DNA of 64,000 bases. Origin: Escherichia coli. GTDB taxonomy: Bacteria; Pseudomonadota; Gammaproteobacteria; Enterobacterales; Enterobacteriaceae. The notes under the pieces are model-generated. The model was not told where the DNA came from. It made no database searches and saw only the letters and a program-made list of their open reading frames with translations. The stretch's first letter is position 1, and the number at the start of each line of letters is the position of its first letter. Below are positions 9,272 through 57,798 of the stretch, in pieces. Where the stretch lies: NCBI RefSeq assembly GCF_003018255.1, contig NZ_CP027440.1; one strand, 5' to 3'. A program made the translations under genes and the position numbers.

Positions 9272-9327
9272 CTTGTTATCGCTGGATGCGACCAGCGTCG
9301 TATCCAGCGTTACAAAACACATTAAAC

Positions 9328-11158: not shown

Positions 11159-12784
<1,626 letters not shown>

Positions 12785-12785
12785 A

Positions 12786-13520
12786 TCAGTCGCGCACTTT
12801 GTCCGCTTTCTCCCGAGCTTCCCGCTCGAGAGAGAAAATAATCCGTTGTAATTGCCGCTCCACCGTCGGGCTGACGTTAAGAAAACGGAAGCTCAGACGG
12901 GGAGTGGTGATGGTTTCATTCCTGCCATCAATCACTTTGCGCTCGCTGATGGAGATTAACTGGGCGTCAAAGTGAAAAACACCCCATTGCCCCATGTTGA
13001 CTTCAATCTGAGCGAAGCGCATGCCTTCGTGCAATCCGGCAGGCTTTGTTGTTTCCAGTAATGCGCCCATGCCGCCTAACGACAAATCATACAGGCGGAA
13101 ACGTAACGTACTGTTATCCGCCAGTTTGGTCTGGCAAAAATATGGCGGATGGAGTGGGGCGGTGATGCGGAAATATCGGCGTCGTTGTACAAACCATAAG
13201 GTGGGAGGCGGTACGGTAATAAATGCCGGAAGCTGCAAGTATTCACTCTGCTGTAGTTGTTCAACAGTAAACTCGACTTTCGCACCCTGAGTTTCGGCGG
13301 TAATGGTAATGTGCTGCGCCTTTAGCACGGCGATGTTGTCTTCGGCCCGGCTGCCGAAATCCAGCACCAGTTTATCCGGAGTTATTGCCAGTATTTTGCT
13401 GATCAGCTGCCCGCCATTCCAGCTAATACGCAAAGGAATTGCGGCTTTGTGCAAATCGCGTAACACGCCCAGGACGGCTAACGGATTTTGTTTCAGGAAC
13501 TGCTCATGGTAATGACTCAC
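12786..13520 (-). CDS. ycgR: YcgR, c-di-GMP-binding flagellar brake protein (PilZ domain)
   Basis: 244-aa ORF with the PilZ motif region RRRYFRI and DLSLGG. Confidence 0.9.
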   Translation of the reverse strand: MSHYHEQFLKQNPLAVLGVLRDLHKAAIPLRISWNGGQLISKILAITPDKLVLDFGSRAEDNIAVLKAQHITITAETQGAKVEFTVEQLQQSEYLQLPAFITVPPPTLWFVQRRRYFRITAPLHPPYFCQTKLADNSTLRFRLYDLSLGGMGALLETTKPAGLHEGMRFAQIEVNMGQWGVFHFDAQLISISERKVIDGRNETITTPRLSFRFLNVSPTVERQLQRIIFSLEREAREKADKVRD

Positions 13521-13720
13521 GCGGAAAAACTCCTGACTGACAAACTGTCTTAGGTTTATCGGTCACAGTTAACAAAACTTAATACAAATGCGTGAATGTT
13601 TTTTACATGTCGTTCTTAAATCAGCCGACATACGCCCAGCATCGATCCCGCCCTTGCCTATACTTAGAGCGTTGACGTAAGCATTTCTTGCGTCCGATTC
13701 ATCGAAACGAGGGCCTGAAC

Positions 13721-13975
13721 ATGGGAATTATTGCCTGGATTATTTTTGGCCTGATAGCCGGCATAATCGCCAAGCTAATCATGCCGGGACGTGATGGTGG
13801 TGGATTTTTCCTGACCTGTATTCTCGGGATAGTCGGTGCGGTGGTCGGCGGCTGGCTGGCGACCATGTTTGGCATTGGCGGCTCCATCAGTGGTTTTAAT
13901 TTGCACAGCTTCCTGGTGGCGGTGGTGGGCGCTATCCTGGTGCTGGGCGTATTCCGCCTTCTGCGAAGAGAATAA
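13721..13975 (+). CDS. ymgE: YmgE, transglycosylase-associated (GlsB/YeaQ/YmgE family) small membrane protein
   Basis: 84-aa glycine-rich membrane peptide MGIIAWIIFGLIAGIIAKLIMPGRDGGGF; start trimmed from the track ORF. Confidence 0.85.
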   Translation: MGIIAWIIFGLIAGIIAKLIMPGRDGGGFFLTCILGIVGAVVGGWLATMFGIGGSISGFNLHSFLVAVVGAILVLGVFRLLRRE

Positions 13976-13987
13976 GATTTTCATAAG

Positions 13988-14020
13988 GCGGATAGCGATA
14001 CATATGCCGCTATCCGCTTT
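13988..14020 (+). terminator. Hairpin terminator after ymgE at the left border of the accessory operon
   Basis: Perfect 10-bp stem GCGGATAGCG / CGCTATCCGC with a 10-nt loop, followed by TTT; lies between the ymgE stop and the receptor gene stop. Confidence 0.55.
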
Positions 14021-14024
14021 CACA

Positions 14025-15995
14025 TCAGAACGTATACTCGATACCTGCCCAGAAATTGCGACCTTCTTCAATAAACCCTTCACTGTAGGCATATTTGGTA
14101 TCAAACAGGTTATTGACCGACGCATTGACGCTGAAGCCATGACCTAAGGTGTAATCGGCTCGAATGTGAGTCACCGCAAAACCGGCGGCTTTTTGTGAAC
14201 CGTCACTGTTGCTGTAGCTGGAGGAACGCGCCTCTTCCGACAGCGTTACGCTTAACGGCTCCCACGGTTTGAGAGTCATCCATGCGGTCATTGTCTGCGT
14301 TGGCAGATCGGTTATCTTGCCGATGTCTTTGCGTTTGGCATCAGCGTGGATCAGGGCGTAGCTCAATCCTACATCCAGTATATTGCTGATTTTCCCCTTA
14401 ATACCGGCATCCAGACCGCTGTAATCCACCGTGCCGCTGTTCTGATTTTGAATGGTATCGGCATCGATATTGTGCGAGAGGATGGCATCACTCACCCGGT
14501 TATAGTAAACGCTGACCTCAAACCCCCAGTCGTGCGTGAAGGCACCATTCCAGGTTAAATCCACCCCGCGCGCGCGTTCCGGCTTGAGCTGCGGGTTAAC
14601 AATCGCTATCTGGTTATACGCAGGTTTGGACGTGGTATAGCGTTCTTTCAGCGTCGGAAAGCGTGTGCGGTCATAGTACGAAAGCGCCAGCGTGTCTTCA
14701 TTGGCAAAGTGGTATTTCCCCATCACCTGCCAGTTAAAAGCTGACTGATTGTTGTCGTCATAATGGGTGATACTGCCATCTTTCTCATGTTTTTTCGCTT
14801 CTACGCTATCGCGCCAGTCATAGCTGATTCCAGCCACGACATCGACATTATCGGCAGCAGCCCATTGATATTCACTGGCGAGCGACCAGGTACGATCTTC
14901 ATAGCGATCGTAAGCGGCGTGCGGCGCACCTTTTTCCCGGTGTACGTCATCTTTCCAGTTAACGGCAAACGACAGCAGATCGTTTTCACGCACATCGGCT
15001 GCCAGTTGTAACCCGGCACCGTCGCTGTAATCGGAATAATGGCTGTAGCTGCCTTTTTTATTTTTCAAATCAGCCAGCGAGTTGTACATCATCAGCGTAT
15101 TTTCAAAGGTATCGCGATACAGCCGACTTTTCAGGGTAAAACGATCGTTTAGTTGGGTCGTTCCCTGATAATAAAAACTTTCTTTGTCATACTCTGGCCA
15201 CTGCCAGTAGCGTGATTTTTGACCACTATTTCCACTGTATGGCGGATTATCTTTTTCACCATCCTGCTTAATGTAAGTCAATGTGTATTCATCGTTTTCG
15301 CGTGGTGTAAAACCGAGCTTCACAATGCCGCGTTTATCATCAGCCGATGAATTAATCATCTTGCCGTGTTTGCCTGCAATATCATTATTTACACCATGCG
15401 GCAGGCCGAGAAAATCCTGCTTTAGCTGGCTACCGCTGACTTGCAAATACCCCAGATCGCTGCTGGCGGCAAATGAAGCATGCATATCGTAGGCATTGTC
15501 CTGGCTACGGCTCCATCCCTGGCGATATCCCAGATTTGCTTCCAGAGGTTTTGTTGGCTTCTGGGTGGTGATATTAATGGCTCCGCCCATCTGATTAGGC
15601 CCCTGAAGCAGCGACGAATACCCTTTGGAAACTTCAACTGCCCCCAAATTGTTGGTCAGAATCCGCGCCAGATCGAGGTTGCCGTCATAGGGAACATAAA
15701 TGGGCACACCGTCGAAATAGACTGGCACCTGACGACTATCAAAGCCACGAACTTTGACCTGTTCTTCGTTGCGGCTACCTGACTTTTGCAGCACCACGCC
15801 GGGGACGACACTTAATGCCTGAGCGACATTCTGTTTATCCAGGGCCTTCATGGTGGGGTGATCGAGAACGGTGGTCGTCGTCGATGATACCGGACTGGAC
15901 CATACGGTCAGCGTGTCACTCTCCTGAGCCGCTAAGGCCTGCTGGGTAAAGGCAAGTGATAATGCTGTGCAGAGATAACGTTTTTTGAGTCTCAT
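14025..15995 (-). CDS. TonB-dependent outer-membrane receptor (accessory, not in K-12 layout)
   Basis: About 656 aa with signal peptide MRLKKRYLCTALSLAFTQQALA, TonB-box-like DTLTVWS near the mature N-terminus, and a C-terminal aromatic residue (…AGIEYTF); start set to the second Met. Confidence 0.85.
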   Translation of the reverse strand: MRLKKRYLCTALSLAFTQQALAAQESDTLTVWSSPVSSTTTTVLDHPTMKALDKQNVAQALSVVPGVVLQKSGSRNEEQVKVRGFDSRQVPVYFDGVPIYVPYDGNLDLARILTNNLGAVEVSKGYSSLLQGPNQMGGAINITTQKPTKPLEANLGYRQGWSRSQDNAYDMHASFAASSDLGYLQVSGSQLKQDFLGLPHGVNNDIAGKHGKMINSSADDKRGIVKLGFTPRENDEYTLTYIKQDGEKDNPPYSGNSGQKSRYWQWPEYDKESFYYQGTTQLNDRFTLKSRLYRDTFENTLMMYNSLADLKNKKGSYSHYSDYSDGAGLQLAADVRENDLLSFAVNWKDDVHREKGAPHAAYDRYEDRTWSLASEYQWAAADNVDVVAGISYDWRDSVEAKKHEKDGSITHYDDNNQSAFNWQVMGKYHFANEDTLALSYYDRTRFPTLKERYTTSKPAYNQIAIVNPQLKPERARGVDLTWNGAFTHDWGFEVSVYYNRVSDAILSHNIDADTIQNQNSGTVDYSGLDAGIKGKISNILDVGLSYALIHADAKRKDIGKITDLPTQTMTAWMTLKPWEPLSVTLSEEARSSSYSNSDGSQKAAGFAVTHIRADYTLGHGFSVNASVNNLFDTKYAYSEGFIEEGRNFWAGIEYTF

Positions 15996-16020
15996 AGAAT
16001 AAATTCCGTTTAACAAAGAA

Positions 16021-16875
16021 TTAAATAGAGGCTGCGGGTTGCAGACTGACTTTAATGTCAGCTGGTGTCGCGTAATAAGGCGCGGAGGTAATAAAAAGGC
16101 GAATGCCGCAGTCGAGGTAATTTTTGAGTGTTGTCAGATTAATTCCGCCGGTCAGAGCCAGCGTGCAGTGAGGAGCCAGCGACGGTGCTATTTGCGCAAT
16201 TTCAGTTGCCTGTTGCGGATTAAATTTGTCGAGCTGAAGTACGTCTGGTTGCGCGCGTAACGCGGCGATTGCCTCTTTCGGCGTGTCGGCTTCAACAACT
16301 ATTTTCTTCTCGGGTGCGTGGCGGCGTAACTGATTGATTGCGCCTGACCAGTCCTGATTGTCATGAAGAAAATGACGGTGGTTGGCAAACAATAATATGG
16401 TTTCCGCACATCCGGCACGATGAATCAGTCCTCCGGCAGCCAGAATTGCCTGCGAGGCCAGTAAGCGGGTGCCCGGAATTGCTTTTCGGGTGCAGGCGAT
16501 ATTGCCATCAGGGTAACGTTCACGAAGTAACGCCAGCATTTGAGCGAGATAATCAGAAACACCGCAACTCCACTCCAGCACATTCTGGACTGCCTTCCAT
16601 CCCTGATGAAGTGCTGCGGCATTACCCTGCGCACGGATTAGCCGCTGACCCGCGTTCGCTTGTGAACCGTCGCTGACTGCGTCATCAATAGTTAATCCCA
16701 GCGTAGTTAACATCTTACACGCGACAGAAATTCCGCTGACGCAGCCGCCCTGACGGTGAAAAAACTCTATATAGCCATGCTGGTGTCCAATATTTAATGC
16801 TCGCGTGGTCAGGTCACCGCCCTGGATATCTTCCAGAAGTAACGCATCGATTTGTGCCTGAGAAAGGAAAATCAT
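16021..16875 (-). CDS. ModD / NadC-like (quinolinate phosphoribosyltransferase family) protein
   Basis: 284-aa ORF with blocks that align by eye to E. coli NadC (LLEDIQGGDLTT; TRKAIPGTRLLASQAILAAGG..NHR; VEADTPKEA..LQLDKF; LALTGGINLTTL); 4-nt ATGA overlap with the upstream methyltransferase gene. Confidence 0.75.
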   Translation of the reverse strand: MIFLSQAQIDALLLEDIQGGDLTTRALNIGHQHGYIEFFHRQGGCVSGISVACKMLTTLGLTIDDAVSDGSQANAGQRLIRAQGNAAALHQGWKAVQNVLEWSCGVSDYLAQMLALLRERYPDGNIACTRKAIPGTRLLASQAILAAGGLIHRAGCAETILLFANHRHFLHDNQDWSGAINQLRRHAPEKKIVVEADTPKEAIAALRAQPDVLQLDKFNPQQATEIAQIAPSLAPHCTLALTGGINLTTLKNYLDCGIRLFITSAPYYATPADIKVSLQPAASI

Positions 16876-17684
16876 CGCAGTGCCTCTTGCGGTACGCTAT
16901 CCCACCAGATGAGCGCCCAGTCGCGGCTGGCAGGGGCGAGGGCACGAGCATCTTGTTGTTGATACCAGCGATATAACCGCTCACGCTCATCGTCGTTAAG
17001 CGCGCCCAGACTCCAGCTGACGTTCTGCTCAAAACGTTCCCAGGTGCTGTTATCCTGTTGGCAATTTTGTCCGCGGATAAAATCAACGTGAGCATAAATT
17101 CCCATCTGATACAGGACGTTGAGCGCAAAGATATAGTTGGGTAATTCGACCACTTCCCGACCAGCCGCCCGCTGAATGGCTGGAGAGACGAACGAGGTGC
17201 TGACCAGATGAGTCGTATAGACGCGAAGCCGTGCCTGATTATTCAGTTTGCTCATTGCCTGGCGCATATCAGCCACCAGAGTGGAGCGGGAAGCCACGGC
17301 AATATCGCAGCGTGGCAGGTCACTCCAGTCCTCTTCCCAGGCGCGCTGGATCCAGTGGACATTGTCTGCCTTTAGCGCGGCGGCGCGACGGGCGGCAACG
17401 TTCAGCATCCCCTGACTGTAATCAACGCCATAAATCGTCGTGAGTTTGTCCGCCAGCGCCAGCGATACGGTACCCGGTCCGCAGCCCATATCGAATAAGG
17501 TTTGCGCGCCTTGCAGGTCAATTTTTGAGGTCAGTTGTTGCAGGTAGCTGTCCGTCGGCGAGGCGCAATTTTCCGCCATTTTTTCCGCCCGTTGATCCCA
17601 GTGATCCGGCGTTTTTTCTGTGCGATGGGCCAGCCTGAGTTGCTGAAGGTAAAGGTCTGCAAAATCAATATCGTCAATGAGCAT
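16872..17684 (-). CDS. Class I SAM-dependent methyltransferase
   Basis: 270-aa ORF with Rossmann motif I LFDMGCGPGTVSLALA and a downstream acidic motif (VDYSQGML); operonic between the ABC ATPase and the ModD-like gene. Confidence 0.75.
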   Translation of the reverse strand: MLIDDIDFADLYLQQLRLAHRTEKTPDHWDQRAEKMAENCASPTDSYLQQLTSKIDLQGAQTLFDMGCGPGTVSLALADKLTTIYGVDYSQGMLNVAARRAAALKADNVHWIQRAWEEDWSDLPRCDIAVASRSTLVADMRQAMSKLNNQARLRVYTTHLVSTSFVSPAIQRAAGREVVELPNYIFALNVLYQMGIYAHVDFIRGQNCQQDNSTWERFEQNVSWSLGALNDDERERLYRWYQQQDARALAPASRDWALIWWDSVPQEALR

Positions 17685-17693
17685 GATTTTTCC

Positions 17694-18452
17694 TTAGTGC
17701 TTAATTGCAGAGAGGTGATGGTGAATCTGGTCGGCAGAAACCCGGTACAGGGCAGCCAGTTTTTTCGTTGTTAACTGTTCGGTCGGTAAGCCTTGTGTTA
17801 CTCGTCCATCTGGCTCTACCTGGATAATGCTGTCGGCAATGGCGTTTGCATGGAGCGGATGATGAGTCGACATTAACATTGTCATGCCGTTATTTTTGAG
17901 CTGCGCCAGCGTGTCCAGAAGTTGGATCTGATGACCGAAATCGAGGCTAGAGGCAGGCTCATCCAGTAATAACAAGCGCGGTTGCTGGACGAGTGCACGG
18001 GCGATTAAAGCCAGCTGACGTTCACCGCCGCTAAGCGTATTCCAGCGTCGTGTCGCCAGATGCAAAATGCCCAGCTTTTCCAGTTGCTCCGTTGCTTTCA
18101 GGCGTTCTTGCTTACCGGGAACGGAAAAAGCGCCTATGGTGGGGGCCTGGCCCATCAACACCATATCCAGCACACTAAAAGCAAAAATGCCGTCGTGCGC
18201 CTGCGGCACCCAGGCAATAGCCTGCGCGCGCTGGCGATGGCTGAGTGTCTGCACAGGGAGGCTATCCAGTAAGATCTCGCCTTTTAATAACGGTATAACG
18301 CCAAGAATGGAGCGCATGAGTGTGGTTTTGCCGCAACCATTGGCTCCTAACAGACAACAAATTGTTCCTTGCGACAGGGTGAAGGACACGTCGCGTAGCA
18401 CCGGATGGCGGGAGTAACCCAGAGACGCATGACGGACGGCAAGCAAAGTCAC
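17694..18452 (-). CDS. ABC transporter ATP-binding protein (FecE/FepC-like)
   Basis: Walker A GANGCGKTT, ABC signature LSGGERQ and Walker B LLLLDEP are present; start assigned to GTG in a GTGA overlap with the permease stop (the track ORF is extended to 18590). Confidence 0.8.
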   Translation of the reverse strand: MTLLAVRHASLGYSRHPVLRDVSFTLSQGTICCLLGANGCGKTTLMRSILGVIPLLKGEILLDSLPVQTLSHRQRAQAIAWVPQAHDGIFAFSVLDMVLMGQAPTIGAFSVPGKQERLKATEQLEKLGILHLATRRWNTLSGGERQLALIARALVQQPRLLLLDEPASSLDFGHQIQLLDTLAQLKNNGMTMLMSTHHPLHANAIADSIIQVEPDGRVTQGLPTEQLTTKKLAALYRVSADQIHHHLSAIKH

Positions 18453-19429
18453 TGGCGACCTCCGCGTAACAACAAAAACAGGAAAAACGGTGCGCCAACA
18501 AAAGCGGTCAGAATGCCAAGTGGGATTTCTGTTGTTCCAATGCTGCGTGCCAGCGTATCGGTAAGCAGGAGCAGAATCGCGCCAGTACACATTGCCATGG
18601 GCAACAGCTGCTGATGGTTATGACCGGTCAACAAGCGGGCAATGTGCGGAACGACCAGGCCGACCCAACCAATTATGCCCGCTATTGCTACCGTGCTGGC
18701 GGTGATGAGTGTGGCACAGACAATCAATCCAAAGCGCAGACGTGTCACGTTCAGTCCCAGCGAACGGGCTTCGTCGTCGGAAAGCGTGAGTAAATTCATG
18801 CGCCAGCGGAGAAAAAACAGGGGCAAGGAGCCTATGAGAATGATCGGTGCAGCATAGCAGAGATCGCGTAAGGTCACGGTGGACAGCCCCCCCAGCAACC
18901 AGAAGGTAATTGACGGTAACTGGGTATAAGGATCGGCCAGCGTTTTTATTAGCGATATCCCCGCTCCGCACAACGTTCCTAACGCAATGCCTACCAGCAC
19001 CAGGGTTAAGATCGGATCGTGGCGGGTCACCCGACGCGTAATCAACCAGACGCCCGCGACCACCATCAGCCCGCCGCAAAATGCGTACAGCTGGATGTAA
19101 ACAATGGATAATCCCCACAGGATTGCCGCGCAGGCACCAAGTCCGGCACCGGCGGAGACGCCTAAAATATCCGGTGACACTAAGGGATTACGGAACATTC
19201 CCTGATAGGTGGTTCCGGCCCCTGCCAGCGCCGCGCCCAGAAACAGCGCAGCAAGAATACGCGGCACGCGGATTTGCCAGAAGACAATTTGTTCCTGCAC
19301 AGTAACATTTTCTTGACGAAGAATGAGCGCCAGCAGTTGCTGCATATCGAGATGATAAGCCCCACTTACGGCGGCAAAAGTGATACTGATAGCTGCCAGC
19401 AGCAAAATACATCCGTTTACGGTTCTCAT
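18449..19429 (-). CDS. ABC transporter permease (FecCD/BtuC family)
   Basis: 326-aa polytopic membrane protein typical of iron-chelate/B12-type permeases; start overlaps the stop of the upstream binding-protein gene by 1 nt. Confidence 0.8.
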   Translation of the reverse strand: MRTVNGCILLLAAISITFAAVSGAYHLDMQQLLALILRQENVTVQEQIVFWQIRVPRILAALFLGAALAGAGTTYQGMFRNPLVSPDILGVSAGAGLGACAAILWGLSIVYIQLYAFCGGLMVVAGVWLITRRVTRHDPILTLVLVGIALGTLCGAGISLIKTLADPYTQLPSITFWLLGGLSTVTLRDLCYAAPIILIGSLPLFFLRWRMNLLTLSDDEARSLGLNVTRLRFGLIVCATLITASTVAIAGIIGWVGLVVPHIARLLTGHNHQQLLPMAMCTGAILLLLTDTLARSIGTTEIPLGILTAFVGAPFFLFLLLRGGRQ

Positions 19430-20451
19430 TAGCTCGCCACCAATTTTTGATAGTCGGCGTCACTTAATGGGCAATGCCAGAACAGTTGGGCGTAATGCTG
19501 CATGTCACTTTTAAACTGGCGATTGATGGCGGGATCCAGCCAGGCGTGAAGTCTGCGTAATCCCAGAAGACGGTTGATTCCCGGCGGGGCATCCAGCCAG
19601 CCAAAGGGCAGGCCACTTAAAAATAAGATGCGTTGTTCCGCAACCGCTTTCACGCCCTGCCAGAGAGGATCACGACGAATAAAATCTGCAGTAACGGCCT
19701 CCTGAACCAGAATAATATCCGGCTGCCAGCGCAGGAGATTTTCCATGGAAACCTGTGTCAGACCGTGGCGATCGGCTATTTGCGCGACGTTGTGCAAACC
19801 TAATAATTCCGCCGCCTCGGTATGCAACGAACCCTGTAAGCCCGTTTCCAGCCCTCGAGGACCGCGCGCAGCATAAAAGCTGAGATTAGCGGCGGGTGAG
19901 GTGGCGAATGCCTGAGCTTCACCAACGAAGCGGCTGGCGAGATTGGCTTGTTCTGCGGCGCGGTGCTCTTCGCCTAACGTTTTGCCAAGCGTTGTTAACT
20001 GTTCTGCTGATTGTTCCAGTTTCCCGTTAAGCAATAACCAGGGTATTTGTGTCTGTTCGCTAACCTGCCGTGCCTGGGAGATCCAGGTTTCATCCGTATT
20101 GCCGCAATCAACGACCAAATCGGGATGTAACGCCATAAGCCCTTCCAGCGAGAGTGTACTGGCGCGCCCGGCGAGTCGTCCCAGCCTGGGGAACTGGCGA
20201 ATGTGCTCTGGCAATGGAATTAATGCCTGACGGGCAAAATCAAAAGAGGAAAAACCGACCATTTTTTCTGGCGCGACAGCCAGCAATAGTAAATCGGCGG
20301 GCGCGCCTGCGCTGACGATGCGTGTAATGTTTTGGGCTTCGGGAAGCGTCAGTGAGGCCCAGAATTTGACTGATTGTGCAAAGGACGGCAGATGATGCAG
20401 GAACAATGTCGACGCAAGAATCTGTGTAAACCTCCGTCTGGTTAGTGACAT
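19429..20451 (-). CDS. Periplasmic substrate-binding protein (class III, FecB/BtuF-like)
   Basis: Signal peptide MSLTRRRFTQILASTLFLHHLPSFA with a twin-arginine-like TRRRF; start chosen at the Met preceded by AGGA 7 nt upstream; first gene of the operon. Confidence 0.75.
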   Translation of the reverse strand: MSLTRRRFTQILASTLFLHHLPSFAQSVKFWASLTLPEAQNITRIVSAGAPADLLLLAVAPEKMVGFSSFDFARQALIPLPEHIRQFPRLGRLAGRASTLSLEGLMALHPDLVVDCGNTDETWISQARQVSEQTQIPWLLLNGKLEQSAEQLTTLGKTLGEEHRAAEQANLASRFVGEAQAFATSPAANLSFYAARGPRGLETGLQGSLHTEAAELLGLHNVAQIADRHGLTQVSMENLLRWQPDIILVQEAVTADFIRRDPLWQGVKAVAEQRILFLSGLPFGWLDAPPGINRLLGLRRLHAWLDPAINRQFKSDMQHYAQLFWHCPLSDADYQKLVAS

Positions 20452-20463
20452 AAGTAATATCCT

Positions 20464-20482
20464 GATAATTAAAACCGCTATA
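20464..20482 (-). promoter_or_regulatory. Candidate Fur box upstream of the accessory transport operon
   Basis: GATAATTAAAACCGCTATA matches about 13 of 19 positions of the Fur consensus GATAATGATAATCATTATC by hand alignment; a TTGACA hexamer lies further upstream on the operon strand. Confidence 0.3.
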
Positions 20483-20787
20483 TACTTACACATATAGCGA
20501 AAAAGATCATGTTTGATGTCAAAATTTGTCTAAAGAGACGGAATGATTTGCTTGTTGCTTAAATAACACTTTGTTCCACAAGAAAATTGTCAGGGAGAAT
20601 GGGGAGTGGGGGAAAATATAAATAGAGGTGTAATGATTAACAAGTTGATAAAATAAAATTAAAATCTTCTCTAATAAAAGAAAATAAAGGCATAGACCGT
20701 AGAAAGAGTGGTATTTGGTATTTCGTGGTGAAGAAAGAGCAATGCCAATTTTATGCACGTAATGGCATTGCTCGATATACAGTAAAG

Positions 20788-22485
20788 TTAAGGCGTAGGT
20801 TCCGCCTCATTTTGTTTTACCGGCTGTGTTGTTGATTCACTGAGTGGACGCGTCGCCGGAACATTGTCGCACGGTTGCTCTTTCGGGCAGATCAAATCCA
20901 GCATTTTCAGCGTCACGCCATTGGTCCAGCCAAAGCCATCCTGTAATGGATATTCGCCACCGCCGCCCCCTGTTCCGGTGGTGCTGACATCATATTTTTC
21001 CACCAGCTTTTTCTCCCGGTCATAGGTGTGCTGAACATTGGTCAGGAAGTGCCAGCTAATGTCCATCGCCACCTCTTTTTGCCCGTAGTTTTGTAATCCT
21101 TCTGTCGCGACCCACTGCAACGGTGCCCAGCCGTTTGGCGCATCCCATTGTTGCCCACTTTTCACCGACGTGGTGTTCAGGCCGCCTGGTTGCAGCAGAT
21201 GTGTTTTCGTCGCCGTCGCCATTTTGCTGGCGCGATCTTTCGCTGCCGCATTGACGTACAGCGGGAACAGGGCGGCCGCGGTTAACTGATTGCGCACTTT
21301 ATGACTTTTCAGGTCGTAATCGGCATACCAGCCTTGTTGATCGTTCCACAGGTATTTTTCGATCCCTTTTTGACGGGCATTCGCCAGCGTTTCGTACTGG
21401 TTTGCCATCGCGTTATCTCCGGCAGCTTTGCTGGCGCGGGCGAGGATTTTTTCCATTTTAAACATCAGGCTGTTCAGATCGACCGGTACGATGCTGGTGG
21501 TGCGTAAGGTATTTAACTGCTGCGGATTGTCCATCCAGCGCGAGCTGAAATCCCAGCCAGACGCAGCGGCAGAGCGCAGGTCGCGGTAAATTTCAGTGGC
21601 AGGTCGATTCGGATTGCTTTTGGCGGTGGCAATATCTTCCACCCATGACTCTGGTCGTGGCGTATCGCGATCGTCCCAGTAGCGGTTGAGAAGGGTACCA
21701 TCCTGAAGTTTGACAACGCGTTTTTCCTGTTGTCCGGCTTGCAGGTTTTCAACACCGTCCATCCAGTAAGCATATTCTTTTTGCATTTGCGGCAGGTATT
21801 GCTTCAACGCGGCATCGCCTTCATGCTGCGCCAGTAACTCTACCATCAGGGCAAAGAATGGCGGTTGTGAGCGGCTTAAATAGTAACTGCGGTTGCCGTT
21901 GGGAATATGCCCGTAAGTGTCTATTTCATGAGCAAAATTGGCCACCATATCCGCGACTTTATCCCAGTGACCACTTTCGGCAAGCCCTAACATGGTGAAG
22001 TAACTGTCCCAGTAATATACCTCGCGAAAACGTCCGCCCGGCACAACATAAGGTTCCGGCAGCGGTAACAGAGAATCCCATTTTTCGGTATTTTCGGTAG
22101 AACGCGTTAATACCGGCCAAAGTCCGTCAATATGTTCGCGTAGTGATTGCCCCTCTGGCGGAACATATTTCTCGCCCTCTTTCGGCAGGGTGAAATTGAC
22201 GTTAACGAAATGGCGTAGATCAAATCCGCTCTGGTTTTGCTGCATCCGATAATCAGCAAGGATCATCAGCGGATCGCTGTTCGGCACGGCATCGGCAAAG
22301 GTTTTTTGGTCCGGAAAAAGTTTGGCGTTTTGCACATCATTAAACAGCGGCCCTAATAAAATATCAGGCGGCTGTGGCGTTACCGGTGTTTCTTCTGCCT
22401 GCACCGATAGCGCAGCGAAACACAAAAAGATGCAGGCTGGAATTAACGCCATTTTTAGCGGGCGAGAAGCTGCGGGGGATTTCAT
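20788..22485 (-). CDS. treA: Periplasmic trehalase
   Basis: 565-aa ORF recognised as TreA (signal peptide, then [22 protein letters not shown]). Confidence 0.95.
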
Positions 22486-22805
22486 CAATCATTCTCCTTT
22501 GGCGAAACCGAATAAAACGGTATTCAAGTATCAGAAAACCTTAGTTCAGGATCGCACTAGCTGCATGATCGAAATCTCATTCTGCGAACGGTCAGGCATT
22601 TTAGAAAAGGGAATTAAAGGGATAAATAACGTCGAAATAGAGTGATCAAATAACGTCTGTTTGTTAGCCAGCCAGCGGCGTTGGGTTCGCGATTAGCGCC
22701 GAAAAAATCATCATGATTTGGTAAAAAATATAACAGGTAGTTAAAAATCATCCGTGCAGAGTAAATAGCCGGATGGCATCAGAACGATGCCATCCGAACG
22801 GTGGT

Positions 22806-57475: not shown

Positions 57476-57560
<85 letters not shown>

Positions 57561-57594
57561 AGGGGTAATTCAAATTTTGAGGTAATGCTTGAGA

Positions 57595-57679
<85 letters not shown>

Positions 57680-57713
57680 AGGGGTAATTCAAATTTTGAG
57701 GTAATGCTTGAGA

Positions 57714-57798
<85 letters not shown>

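Follow-up and report, generated by a model that had tools for sequence, protein, structure and literature searches.

A strain-variable uptake operon between ymgE and treA of Escherichia coli is very probably an ancestral locus that K-12-type genomes lost stepwise

Background

Is the transport operon that some Escherichia coli strains carry between ymgE and treA, and that K-12 does not, an island inserted into certain lineages or an old chromosomal locus that others have deleted? The question was raised by a 64,000-nucleotide stretch of the E. coli contig NZ_CP027440.1 (hereafter the window), in which ldcA-emtA-ycgR-ymgE, six minus-strand genes and treA-dhaMLK follow each other between 12 and 26 kb. 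The initial annotation, made from the letters alone, had reported that the borders of the six genes lack any mobility signature and had proposed an old locus lost or replaced in the K-12 lineage. In the literature the genes are known as the prrA-modD-yc73-fepC cluster, i.e., OI#55 or S-loop#83 (ECs1693-1699) of O157:H7, and as the genomic region "GR 9, ymgE..treA" of strain BEN2908; gene content, gene order and the ymgE/treA position all match the window. The cluster has been described as "possibly mediating iron uptake", as strain-specific and island-like, and was once assigned to a pathogenicity island of CFT073. That the operon exists and varies among strains was known before, and there is nothing unusual in an ancestral operon being deleted in steps; what is new lies in the detail, namely the exact breakpoints, two intermediate forms, the reading of ycgY in K-12 as what is left of a truncated gene, and a lead towards ModE.

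Methods

Four forms of the locus were distinguished: S1 (operon only), S2 (operon plus ycgY), S4 (ycgY present, operon gone) and S3 (the K-12 form). Outgroups were scanned with ModD as query, using one genome per species, which yielded 53 loci. The linkage of prrA with chuA was assessed in 5426 genomes by searching with 1 kb of chuA joined to 1 kb of prrA and, for comparison, with chuA alone. A search with full-length YcgY returned two clusters, and as K-12 YcgY itself was not among them, it offers no basis for claiming absence elsewhere.

Results

Gene content and borders of the operon

The left flank is formed by the conserved ymgE (13721..13975, plus strand; GlsB/YeaQ/YmgE family, according to the RefSeq annotation of a 99.7%-identical genome and Pfam Transgly_assoc) and the right flank by treA (20788..22485, minus strand), likewise conserved according to annotation and comparison with K-12. 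Between them, all on the minus strand, the first gene of the operon encodes a periplasmic substrate-binding protein (19429..20451; Pfam Peripla_BP_2) and is followed by a FecCD/BtuC-type ABC permease (18449..19429; Pfam FecCD, 299 bits), a fepC-like ABC ATPase (17694..18452; Pfam ABC_tran), the class I SAM-dependent methyltransferase yc73 (16872..17684; Pfam Methyltransf_25/31), the quinolinate phosphoribosyltransferase paralogue modD (16021..16875; TIGR01334 ModD, 501 bits) and the TonB-dependent outer-membrane receptor prrA (14025..15995; Pfam Plug and TonB_dep_Rec_b-barrel), the last named after the literature.

With ymgE running to 13975 and the convergent prrA having its stop codon from 14025 on, the left gap measures 49 bp (13976-14024), as had been stated initially, and the perfect 10-bp stem described in it is equally real: GCGGATAGCG (13988-13997) pairs with CGCTATCCGC (14008-14017). 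The hairpin lengthens to 13 pairs (13985..14020; dG about −20 kcal/mol, z = −4.8), and none of 200 shuffled sequences folded equally well. It occurs in every form of the locus, K-12 included, and is kept across Escherichia, E. albertii showing one compensatory pair; in Citrobacter its place is taken by another terminator hairpin, rich in GC. The stem in the window is stable, contains GC and stands immediately 3' of a stop codon; the hairpin probably terminates ymgE and/or prrA. Downstream of the stem there is only UUU on the plus strand and no U-rich tract on the minus strand, and a simple terminator scan left the hairpin uncalled (loop > 8 nt, weak T-run).

On the right, the start codon of the first gene at 20451 (RefSeq annotation, and cross-genus tblastn to the substrate-binding protein) sets the beginning of the spacer to 20452, giving 336 bp (20452-20787) with a GC content of 0.32. 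The AT-rich spacer ending in a treA hairpin had thus been correctly recognized, while its proposed start at 20494 stems from a longest-ORF reading and gives way to the annotated one. E. marmotae and a further Escherichia lineage keep the AT-rich part (20528..20736) at 88-90%. This part is also homologous, though diverged, to the DNA upstream of full-length ycgY, a gene found here in the intermediate forms; the homology of S1 and ycgY-bearing spacers reaches to about 20735 and came to light only once E. marmotae was used to bridge the two, the direct pairwise alignment of the window spacer with the ycgY segment showing similarity not above chance. An 11-bp hairpin (20737..20773, minus strand; dG −18.6, z = −5.2) stands 14 nt past the treA stop and is the probable treA terminator, this one, too, having gone uncalled by the simple scan. 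It is specific to the operon-only form and conserved in E. marmotae with one compensatory pair; at its place the ycgY-bearing forms have the ycgY ORF and a different hairpin of their own, and in K-12 a different hairpin follows treA.

Mobility signatures and composition

No mobility gene was found inside the segment, where all six genes encode transport or enzyme domains (Pfam, TIGR01334), and the annotation of the strains ABU 83972, O78:H4 E12049, G749 and 7/2 shows neither integrase nor transposase within about 13 kb, nor is there any mobility gene in the 15-kb locus of JNE23-011. Neither direct nor inverted repeats bracketing 14049/20786 were detected, an Rfam scan of 12.5-23.5 kb gave nothing relevant (one chance match, E = 0.71), and no tRNA gene lies near the operon, the nearest being located 36 kb off (57476-57798). 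The segment is present once per genome. One O157:H7 strain has an IS3 within ycgR, which is a secondary, strain-specific insertion. A search of plasmids produced 14 matches, all of them "non-mobilizable" and ranging from 91.6 kb to 4.9 Mb, several of them as large as a chromosome, with five of the 14 covering just the first 49 bases of the query; mobile plasmid copies of the operon were rejected on this basis, the records being judged to be chromosome pieces labelled as plasmids. These searches (tRNAs, repeats, domains, plasmids) agree with the initial statement that there is no integrase, transposase, tRNA attachment site or flanking direct repeat, and they brought up no remnant of a mobile element.

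The comparison of the six genes with their flanks in GC content and codon usage, which had been put forward as a check, showed them to be typical. The segment has a GC content of 0.525 (0.511 for the window), with 0.50-0.555 for the individual operon genes and 0.49-0.605 at third codon positions (GC3), and the codon-bias distance of the operon genes to the flank genes (0.215-0.366) falls within the span of the flanks themselves (0.147-0.433). Only ycgY is atypical (GC 0.40-0.41, GC3 0.38, codon-bias distance 0.49).

Breakpoints, ycgY and intermediate forms

Homology to K-12 runs on the left through ymgE, the gap and the hairpin, continues into 24 nt of prrA and ends at 14048. The left breakpoint (14048/14049) is therefore situated 24 nt inside prrA and the right one (20786/20787) at the treA stop codon, and not in the two gaps where the junctions had been placed. 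It follows that the left hairpin is outside the variable segment and common to all forms of the locus; the treA hairpin is inside it. The 24 nt that remain (14025..14048, minus strand) comprise the last 7 codons and the stop of prrA and encode the C-terminal strand of the receptor, AGIEYTF* in the window and AGVEYTF* in K-12 and all K-12-type genomes. With a tail of prrA in the "empty" site, the operon must have been there first.

E. albertii has, in addition to the operon, a 385-aa ORF between treA and the operon (L006 4936-6093), in which no Pfam domain was found and whose C-terminal third corresponds to K-12 YcgY (146 aa; L002 2154-2594). E. coli 06-00048, the only complete genome with this S2 arrangement, has its ycgY split into two ORFs. 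Form S4 was recovered from one Logan contig with E. coli-like flanks (L068), the source of the other full-length YcgY cluster, and consists of ymgE, the 24-nt prrA remnant, a 160-nt filler (L068 9601-9760), an intact ycgY of 384 aa (L068 10001-11155) and treA, without the operon; intact ycgY was thus seen in E. albertii and in one rare E. coli lineage. The left breakpoint of S4 is identical to that of K-12, which retains the first 43-45 nt of the filler (L002 2050-2092) and differs by a further deletion of 1008 bp in which the 5' two-thirds of ycgY went missing. Judged by these forms, K-12 ycgY is a truncated gene remnant and not a replacement cassette.

Since both S2 and S4 are intermediates, two successive deletions can be read from the locus, the first of ~6.5 kb and the second of 1 kb, in the order S2, S4, S3. 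What an ancestral locus would be expected to leave behind, a gene remnant at the junction and intermediate states, is present here as the prrA tail, S2 and S4. Neither the 43-nt filler of K-12 nor the 160-nt filler of S4 matched anything elsewhere in complete E. coli genomes; within the deleted segment, the filler showed a marginal local match to the yc73 region (2 of 200 shuffles score equally) and a weak one (17/20) in modD. The step that led to S4 may thus have been more complex than one deletion. In the treA tree S2, S4 and S3 group together, apart from the operon-only strains, and the trees of the flank genes differ from one another.

Synteny and divergence in relatives

The whole operon was found between treA and ymgE/ycgR/emtA in E. 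albertii, 9-10 Citrobacter species, Raoultella, Enterobacter spp., Intestinirhabdus and strain RIT693, and without these neighbours in Proteus, Serratia, Pectobacterium, Erwinia and other distant genera. E. marmotae and another divergent Escherichia lineage align to the window without a break from 12000 to 22598 at 88-90% identity, AT-rich spacer and treA hairpin included. These alignments, taken together with the outgroup synteny, imply that the arrangement of the window is ancestral for the genus. As to form, S2 was seen in E. albertii, and S1 in E. marmotae and two further Escherichia lineages.

Synonymous divergence (dS) from the window amounted to 0.005-0.036 for the operon and 0.036-0.10 for the flanks in the B2 strain ABU 83972, to 0.05-0.087 and 0.036-0.13 in O157:H7, to 0.10-0.23 and 0.06-0.40 in Escherichia sp. 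MOD1-EC7003, and to 0.67-0.91 and 0.22-0.85 in E. albertii. Gene by gene, operon dS tracks the flanks in all comparisons, from B2 strains to E. albertii, so that the outgroups hold syntenic orthologues which diverge as the flanks do, the pattern expected of an ancestral locus.

Three observations concern other sequences of this region. In a divergent Escherichia (Logan SRR22121090), an MFS transporter gene is located between dhaM and treA (L071 5278-6633), where the window and K-12 have none. A 3.2-kb contig of a MAG labelled Collinsella (L004, JAIJJM010000374.1) has a modD 100% identical to that of the window, with ATPase and methyltransferase at 98%; E. coli DNA has almost certainly contaminated this bin. 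Strain JMF1 has two IS1 copies right after ymgE (L003 7066-8601), beyond which the chromosome picks up at ychF; treA, dhaKLM, dhaR and ycgV are missing through an IS1-associated deletion.

Distribution among complete genomes

The whole operon is present in 2139 of the 5426 complete genomes and the K-12 junction in 3154 (58%). Among the matches listed, the junction always aligned as a single piece with 98.4-100% identity, except for one row interrupted by IS1. Of the genomes, 2236 have chuA, and prrA was matched at about 2141 places; prrA occurred without chuA in at most 14 genomes and chuA without prrA in about 110, and > 99% of the operon carriers have chuA. The Clermont scheme assigns genomes that lack chuA to phylogroups A, B1 and C. 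From the chuA counts we infer that almost all carriers belong to phylogroups B2, D, E, F and G and the genomes with the K-12 junction essentially to A, B1 and C. One junction common to 3154 genomes suggests a single origin of S3, probably in the common ancestor of the phylogroups without chuA. Strains of O157 lineage II lack the whole region (PMC1890555), so some losses in chuA-positive genomes are known secondary deletions.

The O157:H7 strain Z1825 (L058 3474-5521, 8873-9685, 12788-14472) has an internal stop in the methyltransferase gene, a frameshifted treA and a ycgR split by IS3; the prrA locus is decaying in O157.

Elsewhere in the window, a second variable spot lies between dadX and cvrA (about 9272-9327; L062 6503-7939; L068 2767-4212), where strain 7/2 and the S4 lineage have an extra hypothetical gene of about 480 aa. 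Several carrier genomes have cvrA annotated without its C-terminus, and the cvrA ORF of the window is full length (578 aa). The tRNA genes at 57476-57798 are three tandem copies of tRNA-Tyr(GTA) with 119-nt spacing; the tyrTV locus of K-12 presumably has two.

A candidate ModE operator

A putative ModE-type operator palindrome, ACCGCTATATACTTACACATATAGCGAA (20474..20501), is centred 36 nt upstream of the start codon of the operon. It has 3 mismatches to ATCGCTATATA-N6-TATATAGCGAT, a level of agreement for which chance predicts 0 matches; for ModE of E. coli, the published consensus is ATCGNTATATA-N6-TATATANCGAT (PMC545781). The simple terminator scan had made a terminator-like call on this palindrome, which was judged a mis-call. 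In nearly all of about 38 operon loci from many genera, from Escherichia to Proteus and Pectobacterium, a ModE-type box agreeing at 15-20 of the 20 specified positions stands 33-58 nt ahead of the first gene; in three loci (L040, L041 and L044) it is 170-265 nt upstream. The box is unique in each locus of roughly 20 kb, except that Proteus-type loci have a second site. No Fur box (≤ 3 mismatches) was detected in the whole window, and we found no description of ModE control of the prrA operon in the literature. The candidate operator suggests control by molybdate rather than iron; its placement, read by analogy with modABC, would fit repression by ModE-molybdate.

Discussion

We conclude that the segment 14049-20786 is ancestral and vertically inherited, and that the K-12-type empty site arose by stepwise loss, with no insertion involved (probability about 0.9). 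The initial proposal of an old locus "lost or replaced in the K-12 lineage" holds for the loss, to which synteny, the prrA remnant and the intermediates all point, and fails for the replacement, as ycgY is a neighbouring gene that was truncated by the second deletion. Likewise, a loss in the K-12 lineage is confirmed, and its being specific to K-12 is not, as 58% of the complete genomes share the junction. The phylogenetic distribution, named at the outset as a test of recent horizontal gain, came out as ancestral presence followed by loss. Never having moved as an element, the locus has nothing but ordinary intergenic features at its borders, with hairpins between the convergent genes on the left and a promoter/operator region and the treA terminator on the right.

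The course of events was probably as follows. An AT-rich ycgY of 385 aa would have come between treA and the operon promoter in some Escherichia lineages (S2); a deletion of ~6.5 kb, from the promoter down to prrA codon −8, would then have left the 160-nt filler behind (S4); and a deletion of 1008 bp would finally have taken most of the filler along with the 5' two-thirds of ycgY, resulting in S3 and its 146-aa "ycgY". We infer both this order of the deletions and illegitimate recombination as their mechanism.

That literature lists the region as strain-specific or as part of a pathogenicity island, and that K-12 and 58% of the genomes lack the operon, would fit a horizontally acquired island inserted between ymgE and treA in pathogenic lineages, with its mobility genes since eroded. 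We regard this as the least credible of the readings and exceedingly improbable: an intact empty site, with the genes absent from the same site in relatives, is not what was found, given that the 3' end of prrA sits in the "empty" site and that four or more further Escherichia lineages, as well as several other genera, have the operon in the same surroundings, its composition is host-typical and its divergence equals that of the flanks, and there is no tRNA, repeat or integrase, the plasmid matches being mislabelled chromosome pieces. Hardly more probable is a single substitution in which a foreign ycgY cassette replaced the operon in K-12. The AT richness and atypical codon usage of ycgY would suit it, as would its location exactly where the operon is missing, but full-length ycgY stands alongside the operon in E. 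albertii and E. coli 06-00048, K-12 YcgY is merely the C-terminal 146 aa of a 385-aa protein, and the intermediate S4 combines an intact ycgY with the absence of the operon.

A different alternative accepts an ancestral operon and has its present distribution owe much to allelic exchange through the conserved flanks, with full and deleted alleles moving without mobility genes, so that the presence of the operon would not strictly track the clonal frame. The discordant genomes (≤ 14 chuA-negative with prrA, about 110 chuA-positive without it) are in its favour, as are the disagreement of the flank trees among themselves and the fact that E. albertii and the A/B1/C ancestor have the ycgY allele while the Escherichia lineages between them lack it. 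Indeed, with S2 in E. albertii and S1 in E. marmotae and two others, S2 in the A/B1/C ancestor needs either transfer by homologous recombination or a long-lived polymorphism. Still, the linkage of carriers to chuA above 99% and the uniform K-12 junction make recombination at most a minor modifier, and part of the chuA-positive losses are known secondary deletions, e.g., in O157 lineage II (PMC1890555); a major role for such exchange is thus unlikely, if less remote than insertion or substitution.

Under vertical inheritance with stepwise loss, DNA catalogued as O-island, S-loop or "virulence" DNA is actually core-like ancestral DNA that the laboratory lineage lost. This bears on how presence/absence markers are read and on the annotation of ycgY, and with its intermediates preserved, the locus illustrates gene loss in steps with textbook clarity. 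Of the leads that emerged, only the candidate ModE operator holds real biological promise. Tentatively, the operon might import molybdenum (or a molybdate/tungstate chelate or a related small molecule) and not iron, as a TonB-dependent route of high affinity under repression by ModE, with ModD and the methyltransferase acting on the import; should the molybdenum reading be true, the deletion would have left phylogroups A, B1 and C, including K-12, with ModABC only.

Compared with the view of the prrA cluster in the literature, the operon appears here as ancestral and K-12 as derived, and a ModE-type operator was found where a Fur box is absent. With integrase-mediated islands, such as the tRNA-associated PAIs of UPEC, it shares strain-variable presence and uptake genes enriched in extraintestinal pathogens, but it lacks an integrase, a tRNA and direct repeats, shows no bias in composition and is not sporadically distributed. 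The ModE-regulated modABC operon resembles it in having a consensus-matching operator close upstream of the first gene, and the ModD family protein is a further point of likeness; instead of ModA, ModB and ModC, the prrA operon encodes a TonB-dependent receptor and a BtuCD/FecCD-type importer, and its putative link to ModE comes from sequence. A comparable history is the loss of the chu haem-uptake locus in A/B1/C, which serves as a phylogroup marker: the prrA operon is likewise a chromosomal uptake operon between core genes whose presence is near-perfectly linked to chuA, yet the prrA locus keeps its deletion scars and two intermediates, so that the order of events can still be read.
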